This document shows positions 14,042 to 41,277 of a DNA stretch of 64,000 nt, piece by piece. The notes beneath the pieces are model-generated. The model was not told where the DNA came from, made no database searches, and saw only the letters and a program-made list of their open reading frames with translations. A program made the position numbers and the translations under genes. The DNA is from Escherichia phage slur09: the sequence record NC_028840.1, one strand, 5' to 3'. Every line of letters starts with the position of its first letter. Position 1 is the stretch's first letter.

Positions 14042-14149
14042 TTAAAAATTACCGTATATTCCCGGCCAAATTTTACTAGTAACATAAGTTACTATTCCTG
14101 CCGTAATTATGCTGTAAACTACTAACAAGATAAACATTAAACCAGACAT
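14042..14149 (-). CDS. 35-aa hydrophobic membrane peptide
   Basis: Hand-translated MSGLMFILLVVYSIITAGIVTYVTSKIWPGIYGNF; RBS GGAGG upstream; below track length cutoff. Confidence 0.4.
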   Translation of the reverse strand: MSGLMFILLVVYSIITAGIVTYVTSKIWPGIYGNF

Positions 14150-14174
14150 AATACCTCCTCGTAAATATATAATC

Positions 14175-14519
14175 TCATTGCGCCACCTTTCGAAACGCTG
14201 TTTCAATACTATCCGCAGTGGATTGAATATACGCGCCTTTCATTATCAGGCGCTCAGTGCATACTTTGCGGAAAATATTAATAAAATCATCTTCATTTTC
14301 TGCAATTAATGCTTCACCCATAACTTGAACGTCACAAGATGCAAAAGTCAAAAATTGAAATGCTAGTTCACGGGCAACGACCGCATTAATTTTATAATGC
14401 GCCTTGCCCTCATAAATATTAATAACGCCCTTATAAGCTGGGGAAAGCTGATTTAAATAGTTTGCTAATAATGCCGGACGGCAATTAGCAACAAAGCGAT
14501 TGCCTTCATAAATAACCAT
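14175..14519 (-). CDS. hypothetical protein
   Basis: 114 aa from ATG 14519, translationally coupled to upstream gene (TAAaATG); track extends to 14558. Confidence 0.45.
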   Translation of the reverse strand: MVIYEGNRFVANCRPALLANYLNQLSPAYKGVINIYEGKAHYKINAVVARELAFQFLTFASCDVQVMGEALIAENEDDFINIFRKVCTERLIMKGAYIQSTADSIETAFRKVAQ

Positions 14520-14520
14520 T

Positions 14521-14733
14521 TTATAGCACCCCACGAAACGCAGCGTAAAAGGTGGCAAAGTGTTTAACCGTTTCAGCGATCACGTTGCCGCGCTTATCAA
14601 ATTTTTTCTCAGTAACACGAAAGGCATTTTTATTACGTGCTACATATTCGATTCTACAATCTTCCCGCTCGAACGTGTTAACATCCACCAGCTTAAAGCC
14701 TTTCGAACGTGCAAGAGAAACGTTGCGGATCAT
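14521..14733 (-). CDS. hypothetical basic protein
   Basis: 70 aa ORF; start immediately after stop of membrane peptide. Confidence 0.45.
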   Translation of the reverse strand: MIRNVSLARSKGFKLVDVNTFEREDCRIEYVARNKNAFRVTEKKFDKRGNVIAETVKHFATFYAAFRGVL

Positions 14734-34383: not shown

Positions 34384-35775
34384 ATGTCTTTACAACTATT
34401 ACGTAATACTCGAATCTTCGTGTCTACGGTTAAGACCGGTCATAATAAGACCAACACGCAAGAGATTCTAGTTCAGGATGATATTTCTTGGGGTCAGGAC
34501 AGTAACTCAACAGATATTACTGTTAATGAAGCTGGTCCGCGTCCAACTCGTGGTTCTAAACGTTTTAACGACTCTTTAAACGCAGCTGAGTGGAGTTTTT
34601 CTACTTATATCCTGCCGTATAATGACAAAACCACTAGCAAACAAATTGTTCCTGACTATATGTTATGGCATGCACTTTCTAGCGGTAAAGCTCTTAACCT
34701 AGAAGGTGATACAGGGGCACACAATAACGAAGCTAACTTTATGGTTAACTTCAAAGATAACTCTTATCACGAGTTAGCAATGCTGCATATTTATATTCTG
34801 ACTGATAAAGCATGGAGTTATATCGATTCCTGTCAGATTAATCAGGCAGAAGTTAACGTTGATATCGAAGATATTGGCCGTGTAACTTGGTCTGGTAATG
34901 GTAATCAGCTTATTCCTCTGGATGAGCAACCATTTGATCCGGATGAGATAGGTATTGATGATGAAACTTATATGACTATCCAGGGTTCTTATATTAAGAA
35001 CAAACTAACGATCTTGAAGATCAAGGACATGGATACCAATAAGTCTTATGACATACCGATTACCGGTGGTACTTTTACTATTAACAACAACATTACTTAT
35101 TTAACACCTAATGTAATGTCCCGTGTTACTATTCCAATTGGTTCCTTTACTGGTGCTTTTGAATTAACTGGTTCATTAACTGCTTATCTGAATGATAAAT
35201 CTCTTGGTTCTATGGAACTGTATAAAGATCTTATCAAAACTCTGAAGGTAGTTAACCGCTTCGAAATCGCTCTAGTACTTGGTGGCGAGTATGAGGATGA
35301 ACGTCCTGCAGCTATTCTGGTAGCTAAACAAGCGCACGTTAACATCCCTACGATTGAGACTGATGATGTACTTGGTACATCAGTAGAATTTAAGGCTATT
35401 CCGTCAGACCTGGATGCTGGTGATGAAGGTTACTTAGGTTTCTCTAGTAAATATACTAAAACAACTATTAATAACTTGATTGTTAATGGTGATGGTGCTA
35501 CTGATGCTGTAACTGCAATTACTGTTAAATCTGCCGGTGAGGCTACTACAGTAAACAACTCGGCTACTCTTCAGATGAGTGTTGAAGTTACTCCTTCTTC
35601 CGCAAATAATAAGGAAGTTACTTGGGCTATCACTGCTGGTGACGCAGCTACTATCAATGCAACAGGGTTACTAAGAGCAGATGCTAGTAAAACTGGTGCA
35701 GTAACTGTAGAAGCTACTGCTAAAGATGGTTCTGGAGTTAAAGGTACTAAACAGATTACTGTAACAGGTGGTTAA
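34384..35775 (+). CDS. tail tube protein (pb6-like) with C-terminal Ig-like domain
   Basis: 463 aa (T5 pb6 about 464); C-terminal Big_2-like segment ...EVTWAITAGDAATINATGLL...VTVEATAKDGSG. Confidence 0.65.
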   Translation: MSLQLLRNTRIFVSTVKTGHNKTNTQEILVQDDISWGQDSNSTDITVNEAGPRPTRGSKRFNDSLNAAEWSFSTYILPYNDKTTSKQIVPDYMLWHALSSGKALNLEGDTGAHNNEANFMVNFKDNSYHELAMLHIYILTDKAWSYIDSCQINQAEVNVDIEDIGRVTWSGNGNQLIPLDEQPFDPDEIGIDDETYMTIQGSYIKNKLTILKIKDMDTNKSYDIPITGGTFTINNNITYLTPNVMSRVTIPIGSFTGAFELTGSLTAYLNDKSLGSMELYKDLIKTLKVVNRFEIALVLGGEYEDERPAAILVAKQAHVNIPTIETDDVLGTSVEFKAIPSDLDAGDEGYLGFSSKYTKTTINNLIVNGDGATDAVTAITVKSAGEATTVNNSATLQMSVEVTPSSANNKEVTWAITAGDAATINATGLLRADASKTGAVTVEATAKDGSGVKGTKQITVTGG

Positions 35776-35779
35776 TTAA

Positions 35780-36676
35780 ATGTTTTATTCTCTCATGCGA
35801 GAGTCTAAAATAGTTGTTGAGTATGATGGTAGAGGGTATCATTTCGATGCCCTCTCTAACTATGACGCTAGTACGTCTTTTCAAGAGTTTAAAACTCTTA
35901 GACGTACTATCCATAATCGTACAAACTATGCAGACTCTATTATTAATGCTCAAGATCCTTCATCTATTTCATTGGCAATAAATTTCAGTACTACGCTTAT
36001 TGAGTCTAATTTCTTTGATTGGATGGGATTCACGCGTGAGGGAAATTCTTTATTTTTGCCAAGAAATACTCCCAATATTGAACCTATTATGTTCAATATG
36101 TATATTATTAATCATAATAATAGCTGCATTTATTTCGAAAACTGTTACGTATCAACAGTTGATTTTTCTCTAGATAAGAGTATACCAATTCTAAATGTTG
36201 GTATTGAGTCTGGAAAATTCTCTGAAGTATCTACTTTCCGTGATGGATATACAATTACACAAGGTGAAGTACTTCCATATAGTCCTCCAGCTGTGTATAC
36301 TAATAGCGCACCATTGCCTGCATTAGTTTCAGCATCTATGTCCTTCCAGCAACAATGTTCTTGGAGAGAAGATAGAAGTATATTTGATATAAATAAAGTT
36401 TATACTAATAAACGAGCTTATGTCAATGAAATGAATGCTTCCGCAACGCTAGCTTTCTATTACGTTAAGAGATTGGTAGGAGATAAGTTCTTGAATCTAG
36501 ACCCTGAAACAAGAACTCCACTAATTATTAAGAATAAATATGTTTCTATAACATTCCCTTTAGCACGTATTTCAAAACGCCTAAACTTCTCAGATTTGTA
36601 TCAGGTAGAGTATGATGTAATACCTACTGCTGATTCAGATCCTGTAGAAATAAACTTCTTTGGAGAAAGAAAATAA
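35780..36676 (+). CDS. tail protein (p140-like)
   Basis: 298 aa between tail tube and chaperone genes. Confidence 0.4.
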   Translation: MFYSLMRESKIVVEYDGRGYHFDALSNYDASTSFQEFKTLRRTIHNRTNYADSIINAQDPSSISLAINFSTTLIESNFFDWMGFTREGNSLFLPRNTPNIEPIMFNMYIINHNNSCIYFENCYVSTVDFSLDKSIPILNVGIESGKFSEVSTFRDGYTITQGEVLPYSPPAVYTNSAPLPALVSASMSFQQQCSWREDRSIFDINKVYTNKRAYVNEMNASATLAFYYVKRLVGDKFLNLDPETRTPLIIKNKYVSITFPLARISKRLNFSDLYQVEYDVIPTADSDPVEINFFGERK

Positions 36677-37080
36677 TGATTAACTTAAAAGATATTACTC
36701 TAGAAACTCGTACTGTCACTCTTTCATACCCAGGTATGCCGAACTTTAAGCTAGAACTTAATTATATGTCTCGTGCTACTTCTAAACGGGTTATCACTTC
36801 TGCTAAGCGTGACGAATGGGTTAATGGTACTTTGATCCAGGTACAGGATGACGATAAGTTCATTGAAGCCTTCGTTGATGCTGCGATTAAAGGTTGGACT
36901 GGTTTGACTGTAGGTGACGTTGAAAAACTGATGCTGATTGAAACAGATGCTGATCCTGCTACTGAGGTTCCTTTCAGTCGTGATAATGCTGTAATGCTTA
37001 TGCAGAACTCTGCTGCGTTTGATTCTTGGATCAACCAGACAGTGTTCCACTTAGACACTTTTCGTAGCTCAAAAGCGTAA
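36676..37080 (+). CDS. tail assembly chaperone
   Basis: 134 aa upstream of tape measure; acidic. Confidence 0.5.
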   Translation: MINLKDITLETRTVTLSYPGMPNFKLELNYMSRATSKRVITSAKRDEWVNGTLIQVQDDDKFIEAFVDAAIKGWTGLTVGDVEKLMLIETDADPATEVPFSRDNAVMLMQNSAAFDSWINQTVFHLDTFRSSKA

Positions 37081-37141
37081 AGAGTTACTAGATGCTGTTG
37101 CTGACTTTGCTGATAAGTGTATTAAAAGCTCAGCATCTAAA

Positions 37142-37510
37142 ATGACTAAACAACAATATTTAATACTTTGCGAGTCAATGGGTATAGAACCTGATCCTAA
37201 GGCTATGCCTGTTGAACTTGAAGATTTTCCACCTATTGTAGCTATTAGTATGAATATTTATAATAGTCTAGTTGACTGTTTCATACCCGGTGACTTTCCT
37301 ATCTTTATAGGTAAAGACAAAGCTGCTCTAGGTGTTTTATTTGATATTTATGGGATTACTGATCCTATAGAAAAAGAATTTGTTCTACACATTATCAATA
37401 TATTTGATGCTAAAGCTGTAGATGCTGCACGTAAACGTGCTGAGAAGCATAAACCGCAAAACGGAAGGATTCCTAACGTTAAGCCACATGCTAAATCTCG
37501 TGCACGATAA
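37142..37510 (+). CDS. second tail assembly chaperone ORF, possibly expressed as +1 frameshift extension
   Basis: Its frame is open upstream to 37055, overlapping the end of 36676-37080; no Shine-Dalgarno before ATG 37142. Confidence 0.45.
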   Translation: MTKQQYLILCESMGIEPDPKAMPVELEDFPPIVAISMNIYNSLVDCFIPGDFPIFIGKDKAALGVLFDIYGITDPIEKEFVLHIINIFDAKAVDAARKRAEKHKPQNGRIPNVKPHAKSRAR

Positions 37511-37545
37511 AAGTTTCCTCCAATGGGCGTTCCACGATGAGGCTT

Positions 37546-37577
37546 GGCTCTGGGTGATTTGCCCAGAGCCTTTTTTA
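37546..37577 (+). terminator. rho-independent terminator before tape measure gene
   Basis: GGCTCTGGG/CCCAGAGCC hairpin followed by TTTTTT. Confidence 0.7.
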
Positions 37578-37593
37578 TTGGGAAAAATAAAAC

Positions 37594-40500
37594 ATGACTG
37601 ATAAGCTAATACGAGAACTACTAATAGACGTTAAACAGAAGGGGGCAACTCGTACTGCAAAGTCTATTGAAAACGTATCTGATGCGTTGGAAAACGCTGC
37701 TGCTGCTTCCGAACTGACAAATGAGCAGTTAGGTAAAATGCCCAAAACCCTTTACTCCATTGAGAGGGCAGCGGATAGAGCAGCGAAAAGTCTTACTAAA
37801 ATGCAAGCAAGCCGAGGTATGCTTAGTGTTACTAAATCTATAAATAATATAGGGGCTAAGTTAGATGACCTTGCTATACAACTTATTGAAGTAACAGATA
37901 AACTAGAAATTGGATTCGATGGAGTTTCTAGATCTGTTAAAGCAATGGGTAATGATGTTGCAGCTGCAACAGAGAAAGTTCAAGATAGATTGTATGACAC
38001 CAATAGAGTTTTAGGTGGTACAGCTAGAGGTTTTAATGATACTGCTGGTGCCGCTGGTAGAGCTTCTAGAGCTATTGGTAATACTTCCGGTTCAGCACGC
38101 GGTGCAACTCGTGATTTTGCGGCAATGGCTAAGATCGGTGGTAGTTTACCTATTATGTATGCAGCTCTTGCTTCCAACATCTTCGTTTTGCAATCTGCAT
38201 TCGAACAACTTAAACTAGGTGATCAGTTAAATCGTCTAGAAAAATTTGGTGTTATAGTGGGTACTCAGACAGGTACTCCTGTTCAGTCTCTTGCTAGATC
38301 ACTACAAGAGTCAGCTGGCTATGCAATCTCTTTTGAAGAAGCTATGAGGCAAGCATCCTCAGCGTCCGCTTATGGATTTGATGCTGAACAACTTAATAAA
38401 TTTGGTTTAGTAGCTCGTCGTGCTGCTGCTGTTCTTGGCGTTGATATGACTGATGCACTTAATCGTGTAATTAAGGGTGTATCTAAACAAGAAATCGAAC
38501 TTCTGGATGAGCTTGGTGTTACTATTCGTCTTAACGATGCTTATGCTGATTACGTTAAACAGTTAAATGCTGCTAACACAGGTATAACATATAATATTAA
38601 TAGCCTTACTACCTTCCAGAAACAGCAAGCGTACGCTAATGCTGTTATAGCAGAGTCTACTAAACGTTTTGGTTACTTAGATGAAGTACTACGTGCAACT
38701 CCATGGGAGCAATTTGCTGCTAATGCAGATGCTGCACTAAGAAAAATACAACAAGCTGCTGCTAAGTATTTAGGGCCAGTAATTGATGCTATTAATACTG
38801 TATTCTATACATCTCAGGCTTCTGTATCTGCTGAAGCAGCTAGAGCTCAAGAAAAAACTAATAGACAGATAGATCCTACTAACGTTGGTGCTGTTGCTTT
38901 AAGTTTGGCCGCTTCTGAAGAAGGATATAATAAAGCTCTAGATATGTATAAGGAATCTCTTAATAAGCGTAATAAGCTAAAATCTGAGTTCGATAAACGA
39001 ATGGAACAAGCAGATTTCTATACAAAATTAGCTATACGTCAAGTTGGTGAAGGTATTCCTGTTGGTCTTGCAGCAGCAGGTGCTTCGGAAGCCAATAAAC
39101 AATTTGTAGCAGAAACTGCCGCTATGGGACTACAAGTAGCTAGATTAGGTAAGGAAGTTGATGACTCTACGGAAAACCTTAATGCTTGGAAATCCGCGTA
39201 CCAAGCTGCTGGGGCTGCTGCTGCAAAGGCTAGTCCAGAGTTTCAGAAGCAAATTAACCTACAGAGAGATACTACTGATCCTGATGCTGTATACGATTTT
39301 AACTCTACTGTATTAAAAGGTCTAACTGAGCAACAGAAAGCGTACAATCAGACTAAGAAAACTGCTAGTGACTTAGCAAATGACTTTCAAAATATAGCTA
39401 GTAGCACAGATACTGCTGCTAAAACCAGTGCAACTTTTGAAGAGGTAATTAAAAACATATCATCTCTATCCGCAGGAACTGGTAAGAGTGCTGATGAGTA
39501 CGTTAAAAGTCTCAACTTAGGGTTTAACACTCTGTCTGAAATGAAAACTGCATCCCAGGCTCTATCTGAGTACGTTAAACTAACTGGTAATGAAACTAAA
39601 AATCAGTTAGCAGTTCAACAGAAAATAGCTGATGTGTATAATCAAACTAAGGATAAGGAAAAGGCACAGGAAGCCGGTAGGCGTTTAGAACTCCAACAGT
39701 TAGAAGAGCAAGAAGCTGCTTTACGCCGTGTTCTTCAAACAAACCAGGGGAATAAGGCTGTTGAGAAAGAAATTGAAAAAATTCAGCTGGAGAAACTTAA
39801 ACTTACCAATCAGGGTATGGAAGCTCAGAAGAAGGTCAAGGATTACACAGATAAAATTCTTGGTGTAGATCGTGAGATAGCTCTCTTAAATAACCGTACT
39901 ATGACAGATACTCAGTATCGTCTAGCACAGTTAAATCTTGAATTGACCATTGAAAAAGAGAAGTACGAATGGTATACAAAACAAGCTGATAAACAGAAAG
40001 AGGCTGAACAGTCTAGACGTTCTCAAGCCCAAATTGAACGTGAAATATGGAAATTCCGTCAGGATCAGCAAGCTGAAATGACCAGTAAAAGGCAAGAAGC
40101 CTTTGAAAATACTCTAACTTCCATGTTCCCTCTGGCAGGGGAAATGCAAAAAATGGAAATGCAGTTAGATTTTTATACTCAGATGAAAGAACTTACCAAA
40201 GGTAATGCTAACGAGCAAATGCGCTGGAATGCTGAAATAGCTAAGACAAGGGCTCAGATGTCAGCTTTAAAAGCACAACGTAATGCTCAGATGCAGCAAC
40301 AGGTAGGTTCTTCTGTGGGAGCTACATATACTCCTACAACCGGGCTATCTGGAGAGGATAAAGATTTTGCTGATATGCAGAATAGGATGTCTTCATATGA
40401 CCAAGCAATTTCTAAACTATCTGAGTTAAATTCCGAAGCAACTGCTGTAGCTCAAAGTATGGGTAATTTAACTAATTCTATGATTCAGTTCTCTCAAGGA

Positions 40501-41277
40501 TCTCTAGATACTACATCTATGATTGCTTCTGGTATGCAGACTGTGGCCTCTATGATTCAATATAGTACTAGTCAACAGGTTAGTGCAATTGATCAGGCTA
40601 TTGCAGCAGAACAGAAACGAGATGGTAAATCTGAAGCATCTAAAGCTAAACTGAAAAAGTTAGAGGCTGAAAAGTTAAAAATCCAGCAAGATGCAGCTAA
40701 GAAGCAAATTATTATCCAGACAGCAGTAGCAGTAATGCAGGCAGCAACAGCTGTACCATACCCGTTCTCTATTCCTTTGATGGTGGCGGCAGGTTTAGCA
40801 GGTGCCTTAGCTCTTGCTCAAGCATCTTCTGCATCTGGTATGTCTTCTATTGCAGATTCTGGAGCAGATACTACTCAGTACTTAACTCTAGGTGAGAGAC
40901 AGAAGAACGTTGATGTATCTATGCAAGCTAGCTCAGGAGAATTATCCTACCTACGTGGTGATAAAGGTATTGGTAATGCCAACTCATTTGTTCCGCGTGC
41001 TGAAGGTGGTATGATGTACCCTGGGGTTAGTTATCAAATGGGTGAGCATGGTACCGAAGTAGTAACTCCTATGGTTCCTATGAAAGCCACACCTAATGAT
41101 CAGCTTTCTGATGGATCAAAGACTACCTCTGGAAGACCAATCATTCTGAATATTAGCACAATGGATGCTGCTAGCTTTAGAGATTTTGCATCGAATAACA
41201 GCACTGCTTTAAGAGATGCCGTGGAACTGGCTCTTAATGAGAATGGATCCACCCTTAAATCTCTTGGTAATATGTAA
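37594..41277 (+). CDS. tape measure protein (pb2-like)
   Basis: 1227 aa; long Ala/Gln-rich coiled coils; C-terminal hydrophobic stretch and metallopeptidase-like region; position. Confidence 0.85.
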   Translation: MTDKLIRELLIDVKQKGATRTAKSIENVSDALENAAAASELTNEQLGKMPKTLYSIERAADRAAKSLTKMQASRGMLSVTKSINNIGAKLDDLAIQLIEVTDKLEIGFDGVSRSVKAMGNDVAAATEKVQDRLYDTNRVLGGTARGFNDTAGAAGRASRAIGNTSGSARGATRDFAAMAKIGGSLPIMYAALASNIFVLQSAFEQLKLGDQLNRLEKFGVIVGTQTGTPVQSLARSLQESAGYAISFEEAMRQASSASAYGFDAEQLNKFGLVARRAAAVLGVDMTDALNRVIKGVSKQEIELLDELGVTIRLNDAYADYVKQLNAANTGITYNINSLTTFQKQQAYANAVIAESTKRFGYLDEVLRATPWEQFAANADAALRKIQQAAAKYLGPVIDAINTVFYTSQASVSAEAARAQEKTNRQIDPTNVGAVALSLAASEEGYNKALDMYKESLNKRNKLKSEFDKRMEQADFYTKLAIRQVGEGIPVGLAAAGASEANKQFVAETAAMGLQVARLGKEVDDSTENLNAWKSAYQAAGAAAAKASPEFQKQINLQRDTTDPDAVYDFNSTVLKGLTEQQKAYNQTKKTASDLANDFQNIASSTDTAAKTSATFEEVIKNISSLSAGTGKSADEYVKSLNLGFNTLSEMKTASQALSEYVKLTGNETKNQLAVQQKIADVYNQTKDKEKAQEAGRRLELQQLEEQEAALRRVLQTNQGNKAVEKEIEKIQLEKLKLTNQGMEAQKKVKDYTDKILGVDREIALLNNRTMTDTQYRLAQLNLELTIEKEKYEWYTKQADKQKEAEQSRRSQAQIEREIWKFRQDQQAEMTSKRQEAFENTLTSMFPLAGEMQKMEMQLDFYTQMKELTKGNANEQMRWNAEIAKTRAQMSALKAQRNAQMQQQVGSSVGATYTPTTGLSGEDKDFADMQNRMSSYDQAISKLSELNSEATAVAQSMGNLTNSMIQFSQGSLDTTSMIASGMQTVASMIQYSTSQQVSAIDQAIAAEQKRDGKSEASKAKLKKLEAEKLKIQQDAAKKQIIIQTAVAVMQAATAVPYPFSIPLMVAAGLAGALALAQASSASGMSSIADSGADTTQYLTLGERQKNVDVSMQASSGELSYLRGDKGIGNANSFVPRAEGGMMYPGVSYQMGEHGTEVVTPMVPMKATPNDQLSDGSKTTSGRPIILNISTMDAASFRDFASNNSTALRDAVELALNENGSTLKSLGNM

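Follow-up and report, generated by a model that had tools for sequence, protein, structure and literature searches.

In phage lambda, the tail assembly chaperone gpG and its frameshifted form gpGT are made at a ratio of ~30:1, and the chaperone frameshift is conserved in long-tailed phages, as summarised in PMC5009743 (citing Levin 1993 and Xu, Hendrix & Duda 2004). Here we describe the corresponding locus of the Tequintavirus Escherichia phage slur09 (NC_028840.1), analysed within a stretch of 64,000 nucleotides (nt) that we refer to as the window. On comparative grounds, a programmed +1 frameshift at positions 37060-37063 very probably joins two chaperone open reading frames (ORFs) into a 277-amino acid (aa) fusion. 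As in the lambda gpG/gpGT system, the two ORFs lie between the tail tube genes and the tape-measure gene, where the initial annotation had expected a frameshifted chaperone, and the second lacks a start of its own. The proposed minority fusion would likewise share the N-terminal chaperone domain and be expected to form a low share of the product. Unlike in lambda, the shift would be +1 rather than -1, and no X_XXY_YYZ heptamer is present in the overlap of the two frames (37055-37080). In addition, the ORF1 stop is separated from the annotated ORF2 start by 61 nt, which hides the relationship from gene callers.

Forward shifts have previously been attributed to this gene pair. In actinobacteriophage genomes from SEA-PHAGES, 350 forward chaperone frameshifts are annotated, and the prediction tool PRFect defines +1 slippery motifs as runs of three or four identical bases (PMC10885494); a likely +1 chaperone frameshift has also been described in the archaeal virus HSTV-2 (PMC5009743). 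These examples share the gene pair and the direction of shift with the window but involve unrelated protein families and hosts, and our literature search found no report of their sites being UUU_CGN or having a homologous -1 counterpart in a sister clade.

The sequence at the proposed shift site has precedents among eukaryotic viruses. The +1 site of influenza A virus PA-X is UCC_UUU_CGU, as given in PMC5009743 and PMC5052127 (citing Jagger 2012 and Firth 2012); its efficiency is ~1-2% in reticulocyte lysate (PMC5052127), and UUU_CGN is the consensus +1 motif of plant amalgaviruses (Nibert 2016, PMC5052127). The window site has the identical UUU_CGN core, with the same possible re-pairing of tRNA-Phe from UUU to UUC, and is similarly minimal, lacks obvious RNA structure and is expected to act at low efficiency; the corresponding site of Pectobacterium phage DU_PP_V, UCC_UUU_CGU, is exactly the influenza PA-X sequence. 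The viral systems differ in that they use eukaryotic ribosomes on which CGN is rare, while the window site belongs to a morphogenesis gene of a DNA phage with a bacterial host and uses CGU, the commonest arginine codon of this phage. In bacteria, UUU_Ynn sites prone to +1 shifting include Escherichia coli argI (Fu & Parker 1994) and, as a proposal, Yersinia YopN-TyeA, as cited in PMC5009743 and PMC3789692; mutation of the YopN UUU_UGG did not abolish the YopN-TyeA hybrid (PMC3789692). These cases resemble the window site in that bacterial ribosomes are involved and tRNA-Phe in the P site slips on UUU ahead of a pyrimidine, with no need for a stop codon. They differ in being error-type or debated events, while the window site is conserved throughout its family and stands where a fusion protein is functionally expected.

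The main elements of the locus are as follows.

36676-37080, plus strand: ORF1, 'G'-type tail assembly chaperone of 134 aa (15.1 kDa) starting with ATG, homolog of T5.143.
37055-37080, plus strand: overlap of 26 nt (~8 sense codons and the stop) in which frame 0 and frame +1 are both open.
37057-37065, plus strand: proposed cassette for the +1 shift, ACU_UUU_CGU, showing no variation among the 33 unique Markadamsvirinae sequences.
37064-37141, plus strand: linker predicted to be read only in the fusion product (VAQKRKELLDAVADFADKCIKSSASK), with +1-frame coding variation and no start codon.
37142-37510, plus strand: ORF2, 'T'-type domain of 122 aa from its ATG, homolog of T5.142 (PHROG 3914, E = 2e-56).

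ORF1 is preceded by GGAG 10 nt upstream of its ATG. Consistent with the initial annotation, which had reported ORF2 to lack a Shine-Dalgarno sequence, no Shine-Dalgarno-like run occurs in the 25 nt that precede the ORF2 ATG (gtgtattaaaagctcagcatctaaa). Relative to ORF1, ORF2 is offset by +1, and its frame has a TAG at 37052-37054 and is open from 37055 onwards, overlapping the last eight codons of ORF1 as that annotation had stated; the sizes it gave for the two ORFs and its placement of ACU-UUU-C at 37057-37063 were also confirmed, with TTT (37060-37062) in the ORF1 frame and followed by CGT. No ATG, GTG or TTG occurs in the +1 frame between 37055 and 37141, and because the linker has no start codon, any ribosome translating it must come from ORF1. 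The -1 frame, wherever it is entered in the overlap, ends at a TAG at 37089-37091, and a candidate -1 shift on UCA_AAA_G was rejected for this reason.

We propose that the majority of ribosomes would read ORF1 to its stop, yielding the 134-aa chaperone. In a minority, tRNA-Phe (anticodon GAA) in the P site on UUU (37060-37062) would slip forward by one base and re-pair with the overlapping UUC (37061-37063), exchanging a G:U wobble for a G:C pair. Decoding would then continue at GUA (37064-37066) instead of CGU, the corresponding codons in other genera being GAG, GAA, GUU and GUG. The shifted ribosomes would read the linker and ORF2 to give a G-T fusion of 277 aa and 31.1 kDa (36676-37062 joined to 37064-37510), with the junction HLDTF/VAQKRK (the slash marking the shift) and a predicted tryptic junction peptide DNAVMLMQNSAAFDSWINQTVFHLDTFVAQK; in this proposal, most or all of the ORF2 product would arise as the C-terminal part of this fusion. 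By analogy with lambda gpG/gpGT, the G part may bind the tape-measure protein and the T part may recruit the tail tube protein. We infer the slippage itself and the roles of the two products; the efficiency of the shift is probably a few per cent, which suits a G:GT system given the ratio in lambda.

To compare the overlap in relatives, we used 14 divergent Demerecviridae-type lineages, hereafter the '+1' lineages: Tequintavirus, Epseptimavirus, Pantoea phage AAS21, Sugarlandvirus, Vipunavirus pVp-1, Thalassavirus, Pogseptimavirus, Vibrio phage D13, Novosibvirus (Proteus), Yersinia phage phiR2-01, Pectobacterium phage DU_PP_V, phage Eos and two metagenomic contigs. Protein identity of ORF1 across these lineages falls to ~30%. 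In all 14, ORF2 is in the +1 frame and this frame extends upstream past the ORF1 stop without interruption, the overlaps measuring 14-122 nt, and all 14 have an in-frame UUU_CGU or UUU_CGA located 6-30 nt ahead of that stop. The preceding codon varies among lineages (ACU, ACC, ACG, AAC or UCC) and nothing is conserved after CGN, leaving UUU_CGN as the only nucleotide motif common to every lineage. In phage D13 the entire stretch in which both frames are open is 14 nt (A ACA ACU UUC GUU AA), so there is hardly any alternative place to shift. Aeromonas phage AhSzq-1 was left out of this comparison because its ORFs are fragmented here: in NC_047949.1 (90117-93338; locus L012, designated 'partial genome' by RefSeq) the p140-like, chaperone and tape-measure ORFs are represented by short fragments only, and its tail-gene region looks like indel-rich sequence. 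One further locus, L062, was discarded as a spurious match.

A tblastn search with the conceptual fusion matched 908 phage records, all from hosts typical of the T5 family. Among the 60 matches listed, 59 align as two pieces, that is, in two frames, and the one that does not is a BF23 fragment of 2.8 kb extending over no more than the start of ORF1; an in-frame fusion was seen in none of the 60. About 900 sequenced relatives carry these chaperone genes, and in every annotated record that we inspected the +1 signal is so far unannotated.

Codon usage at the junction points to selection on the nucleotide sequence. At the junction, all 20 lineages encode phenylalanine with TTT, while four other conserved phenylalanine columns have TTT:TTC counts of 10:7, 5:10, 7:11 and 10:10 (32:38 in total). 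The arginine codon that follows is CGU or CGA in 14 of 14 and never AGA or AGG, though AGR makes up 36% of arginine codons in the window. A C after UUU would be required, because only UUC lets tRNA-Phe re-pair in the +1 frame. Within Markadamsvirinae, positions 37057-37068 are invariant in the 33 unique sequences, and third positions elsewhere are ~70% variable. Taken together, the comparative data indicate that the motif is conserved beyond the requirement of the protein.

The arrangement as a whole is non-random, for the reason that it is conserved across relatives and not because of the open frame alone: an open stretch of 29 codons is by itself unremarkable in A+T-rich DNA (a chance of ~0.15 by our own estimate), while TTT_CGN would be expected in the last eight codons of a given gene in ~0.3% of cases (7 in-frame occurrences among 17,209 dicodons of the window). 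Those seven occurrences compare with 11 expected in window genes, an under-representation, while TTC_CGN, found 17 times, is over-represented. More generally, in the long ORFs of the window, a codon that begins with a pyrimidine comes after TTT in 90 of 428 cases (21%), compared with 146 of 271 (54%) for TTC, a bias consistent with genome-wide selection against shift-prone UUU_Y. A second TTT_CGA is located on the minus strand, seven codons before the stop of the ORF at 14175-14558. The ORF at 14042-14206, also on the minus strand and encoding a small hydrophobic protein, is +1 to it and open across this TTT_CGA, and it has a strong start of its own (GAGGAGG and ATG); the arrangement across 14042-14558 is probably a coincidence.

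Variation within Markadamsvirinae further locates the change of reading frame. The 33 unique sequences align without indels, and in the part of the linker beyond the ORF1 stop (37081-37141) there are 5, 1 and 15 variable sites at +1-frame codon positions 1, 2 and 3, a pattern comparable to that of ORF1 (26, 4 and 88) and ORF2 (18, 12 and 75). Upstream of the motif, changes are synonymous in frame 0 (CAC/CAT, TTA/CTA/CTC, GAC/GAT). From 37069 onwards, variation is synonymous in the +1 frame: the T/C at 37069, which is the only variable site in 37057-37080, leaves the +1 codon synonymous (GCU/GCC) and would exchange Ser for Pro in frame 0. These two observations bracket the switch of the selected frame to 37057-37068, which is the motif. 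They support the central proposal of the initial annotation, that a +1 shift at ACU_UUU_C would fuse the two ORFs, and the overlap on which it was based is retained throughout the '+1' lineages.

Further evidence came from a sister clade of uncultivated IMG/VR contigs (L045-L058 and L061), one of which is 104 kb, suggesting T5-sized genomes. These encode a major tail gene, a G homolog (31-34% identity to the window ORF1), a T homolog and a tape-measure gene that shares its PHROG family with the one in T5. The two clades are alike in having homologous G and T domains with a fusion at the same Phe UUU. They differ in that in the sister clade no p140-like gene separates the major tail gene from G, its T homolog is in the -1 frame and its overlap contains the canonical heptamer A_AAU_UUU (for example, L049 1587-1625). 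The UUU of the heptamer aligns with that of the window (DLENF/Y and IDNF/E in the sister clade, LDTF/V in the window), and fused products of the two clades align without gaps at the junction. A stable hairpin lies 4-6 nt downstream of the heptamer (z-scores of -2.6 and -3.6); its 8-base pair (bp) core is paired in 8 of 8 sequences, two of which carry a C-G to A-U double change. Because the sister clade has a -1 heptamer and a hairpin at the homologous codon, the G-T fusion is predicted to be a conserved requirement of this chaperone family, and by the same alignments the two clades keep a fixed point of fusion and differ in the direction of slippage alone. The initial annotation had described -1 slippage as the usual mechanism, with which the sister clade agrees, and a +1 event as atypical, although forward chaperone shifts have precedents elsewhere.

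Considering these systems together, we somewhat favour a broader reading, in which UUU_CGN would be a minimal, stimulator-free +1 cassette for both bacterial and eukaryotic ribosomes, the whole of Demerecviridae would rely on it for the G-T fusion and this one chaperone family would have switched between -1 and +1 shifting at a single phenylalanine codon.

The best-surviving alternative, which we nevertheless consider unlikely, is that no recoding takes place and that ORF2 is a separate 122-aa protein started at AUG 37142, through termination-reinitiation or weak initiation independent of a Shine-Dalgarno sequence, with the open frame upstream being incidental. One feature of the linker bears on this directly.

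37089-37139, plus strand: hairpin with a 9-bp basal stem (37089-37097 with 37131-37139), inside the linker and ending 2 nt before ATG 37142.

The hairpin has a fold z-score of -3.5, and its stem is paired in 21 of 21 unique Markadamsvirinae sequences, including one U-A to C-G double change; it was not found in other genera and is conserved in Markadamsvirinae only. At 25 nt from the shift site it is too distant for a classical stimulator role, but it would draw the ORF1 stop and AUG 37142 together, and the AUG is itself invariant in the 33 Markadamsvirinae sequences. Outside this subfamily the start is not maintained: the residue aligned to the ORF2 Met is Ile in Sugarlandvirus and Eos (ATA in Eos and ATG in T5) and Val in Pantoea phage AAS21 and metagenomic contig L063; most Vibrio phages have Phe or Leu there, and D13 alone keeps Met. 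The ORF2 starts chosen by gene callers in other genera are non-homologous. Separate initiation would also lack a Shine-Dalgarno sequence before the AUG and is at odds with the linker itself, which varies as a +1-frame coding sequence and can be aligned between genera. Conceptual fusions from nine genera are colinear, with a gap-free junction and a common helical pattern in the linker, and AlphaFold models predict an ORF1 helix continuing up to the shift site and a linker helix (predicted local distance difference test, pLDDT, of ~80). Finally, separate translation leaves unexplained both the invariance of TTT and the -1 heptamer with its hairpin at the same codon of the sister clade. Some independent initiation of ORF2 may occur alongside frameshifting.

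Two alternatives retain the fusion but change how it arises. A -2 shift would enter the same frame and add one residue (TFFVAQK), and cases elsewhere that were supposed to be +1 have proved to be -2 (OAZ1 discussion, PMC10885494). The site of the T5 group lies within a U_UUU run, where a tRNA-Phe moved back onto CUU could still pair with two of its three bases. However, Vibrio, Proteus and Yersinia phages have AAC_UUU, tRNA-Phe would pair poorly on ACU, the UUU to UUC re-pairing is perfect in 14 of 14 lineages, and the base after UUU, relevant only to a +1 shift, is always C; we regard a -2 shift as highly improbable. Least probable of all is a shift elsewhere in the overlap, either a +1 slip on AAA_G (37072-37075), which lies 3 nt before the stop and could exploit the ability of tRNA-Lys to read AAG but is missing from the overlaps of Pantoea phage AAS21, D13, pVp-1, Proteus phage 2 and others and lies downstream of a site, 37069, that is already synonymous in the +1 frame, or transcriptional slippage removing a base from the T run, since T runs of 3-4 bases are probably too short for polymerase slippage.

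Several points weigh against a programmed +1 shift at UUU_CGU. The support is comparative, and a literature search found no T5-family proteomic or genetic data; according to a published genome note, no frameshift signal is predicted in T5 or Sugarland. ORF1 and ORF2 are two separate coding sequences in every annotated record inspected, and the conservation of AUG 37142 within Markadamsvirinae also counts here. CGU is the commonest arginine codon in window genes (304 of 709), which leaves no evident pause of the sort that usually favours a +1 slip; CGA, used at the site by three Vibrio lineages, is rarer (60 of 709). No tRNA genes were found in the window. Neither a conserved upstream Shine-Dalgarno-like element nor an adjacent downstream stimulator was found in the '+1' clade, and no hairpin is common to its genera; a candidate stimulator directly after the site (37064-37070 with 37082-37088) was rejected, being broken in most relatives including T5. 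The absence of adjacent structure does fit a P-site slip that needs none. Lastly, the lineages are phylogenetically related and counts of 14 or 20 are not independent trials, although the free turnover of TTT and TTC at other phenylalanine codons is a fair internal control despite this relatedness.

Many Tequintavirus genomes are 95-99% identical to the surrounding region (36400-37700), and for 36676-37510 the identity to phage T5 is 95.6%. The neighbouring features are listed below.

34384-35775, plus strand: tail tube protein gene, with a Big_2 domain.
35780-36676, plus strand: p140-like baseplate tube protein.
37546-37580, plus strand: intrinsic-terminator-like hairpin (37546-37570) and T-run, between ORF2 and the tape-measure gene.
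37594-41277, plus strand: tape-measure gene, with TMP_N and TMP_C Pfam matches.

A putative terminator is annotated in T5 at the position matching the hairpin at 37546-37580. In T5, an additional gene, the endonuclease gene T5.141, separates the chaperone genes from the tape measure (locus L003, 1436-2035); at this place the window (37511-37593) and most relatives have only the terminator-like hairpin. In phage NBSal005 (NC_048857.1; locus L001, 2695-4301), the tape-measure gene is split into two coding sequences (258 nt and the rest), suggesting a frameshift or a sequencing error in that record.

A single profile, PHROG 313, spans both ORFs, with ORF1 matching positions 12-141 and ORF2 matching positions 170-258. 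No joined or fusion coding sequence exists in any annotated record inspected, and 37064-37141 is called intergenic there. A search for homologous proteins returned no matches with the fused 277-aa sequence, and the separate halves returned 11-12 close relatives, none of them a fused protein. One protein identical to ORF1 (P0012, 100%) is filed as 'hypothetical protein, partial [Enterococcus faecalis]' on a contig of 776 nt, which is probably T5-like phage DNA contaminating an Enterococcus faecalis assembly. ORF1 had no match in our Pfam scan, for which the copy of Pfam did not include PF27119; homologs of ORF1 have precomputed Pfam matches to this family, 'Phage_YdaY', ydaY being a gene of the E. 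coli Rac prophage. Fold comparison of ORF1 gave a top-ranked but weak match to the HK97 and YqbN chaperones, while a profile search against PDB sequences had no match and Foldseek against PDB gave nothing significant.

T5 serves as a model siphovirus in work on how tails are built, both their structure and their assembly, and the records inspected present its chaperone genes as encoding two small proteins with no relation to each other. If the +1 shift is real, the true products of this locus would be a G protein of 15 kDa and a G-T fusion of 31 kDa, the ORF2 starts now annotated would be gene-calling artefacts and T5 tail assembly would follow the logic of lambda. For annotation tools, the site would provide a clear +1 training case from outside the actinobacteriophages. 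It would also place the UUU_CGN motif of influenza PA-X in a bacterial system that is amenable to genetics, and the two clades, matched for -1 and +1 shifting at one homologous codon, would be suited to studying the evolution of frameshift signals. Under the broader reading given above, the chaperone family would constitute a natural experiment showing that evolution can exchange one direction of recoding for the other at a fixed point of fusion.

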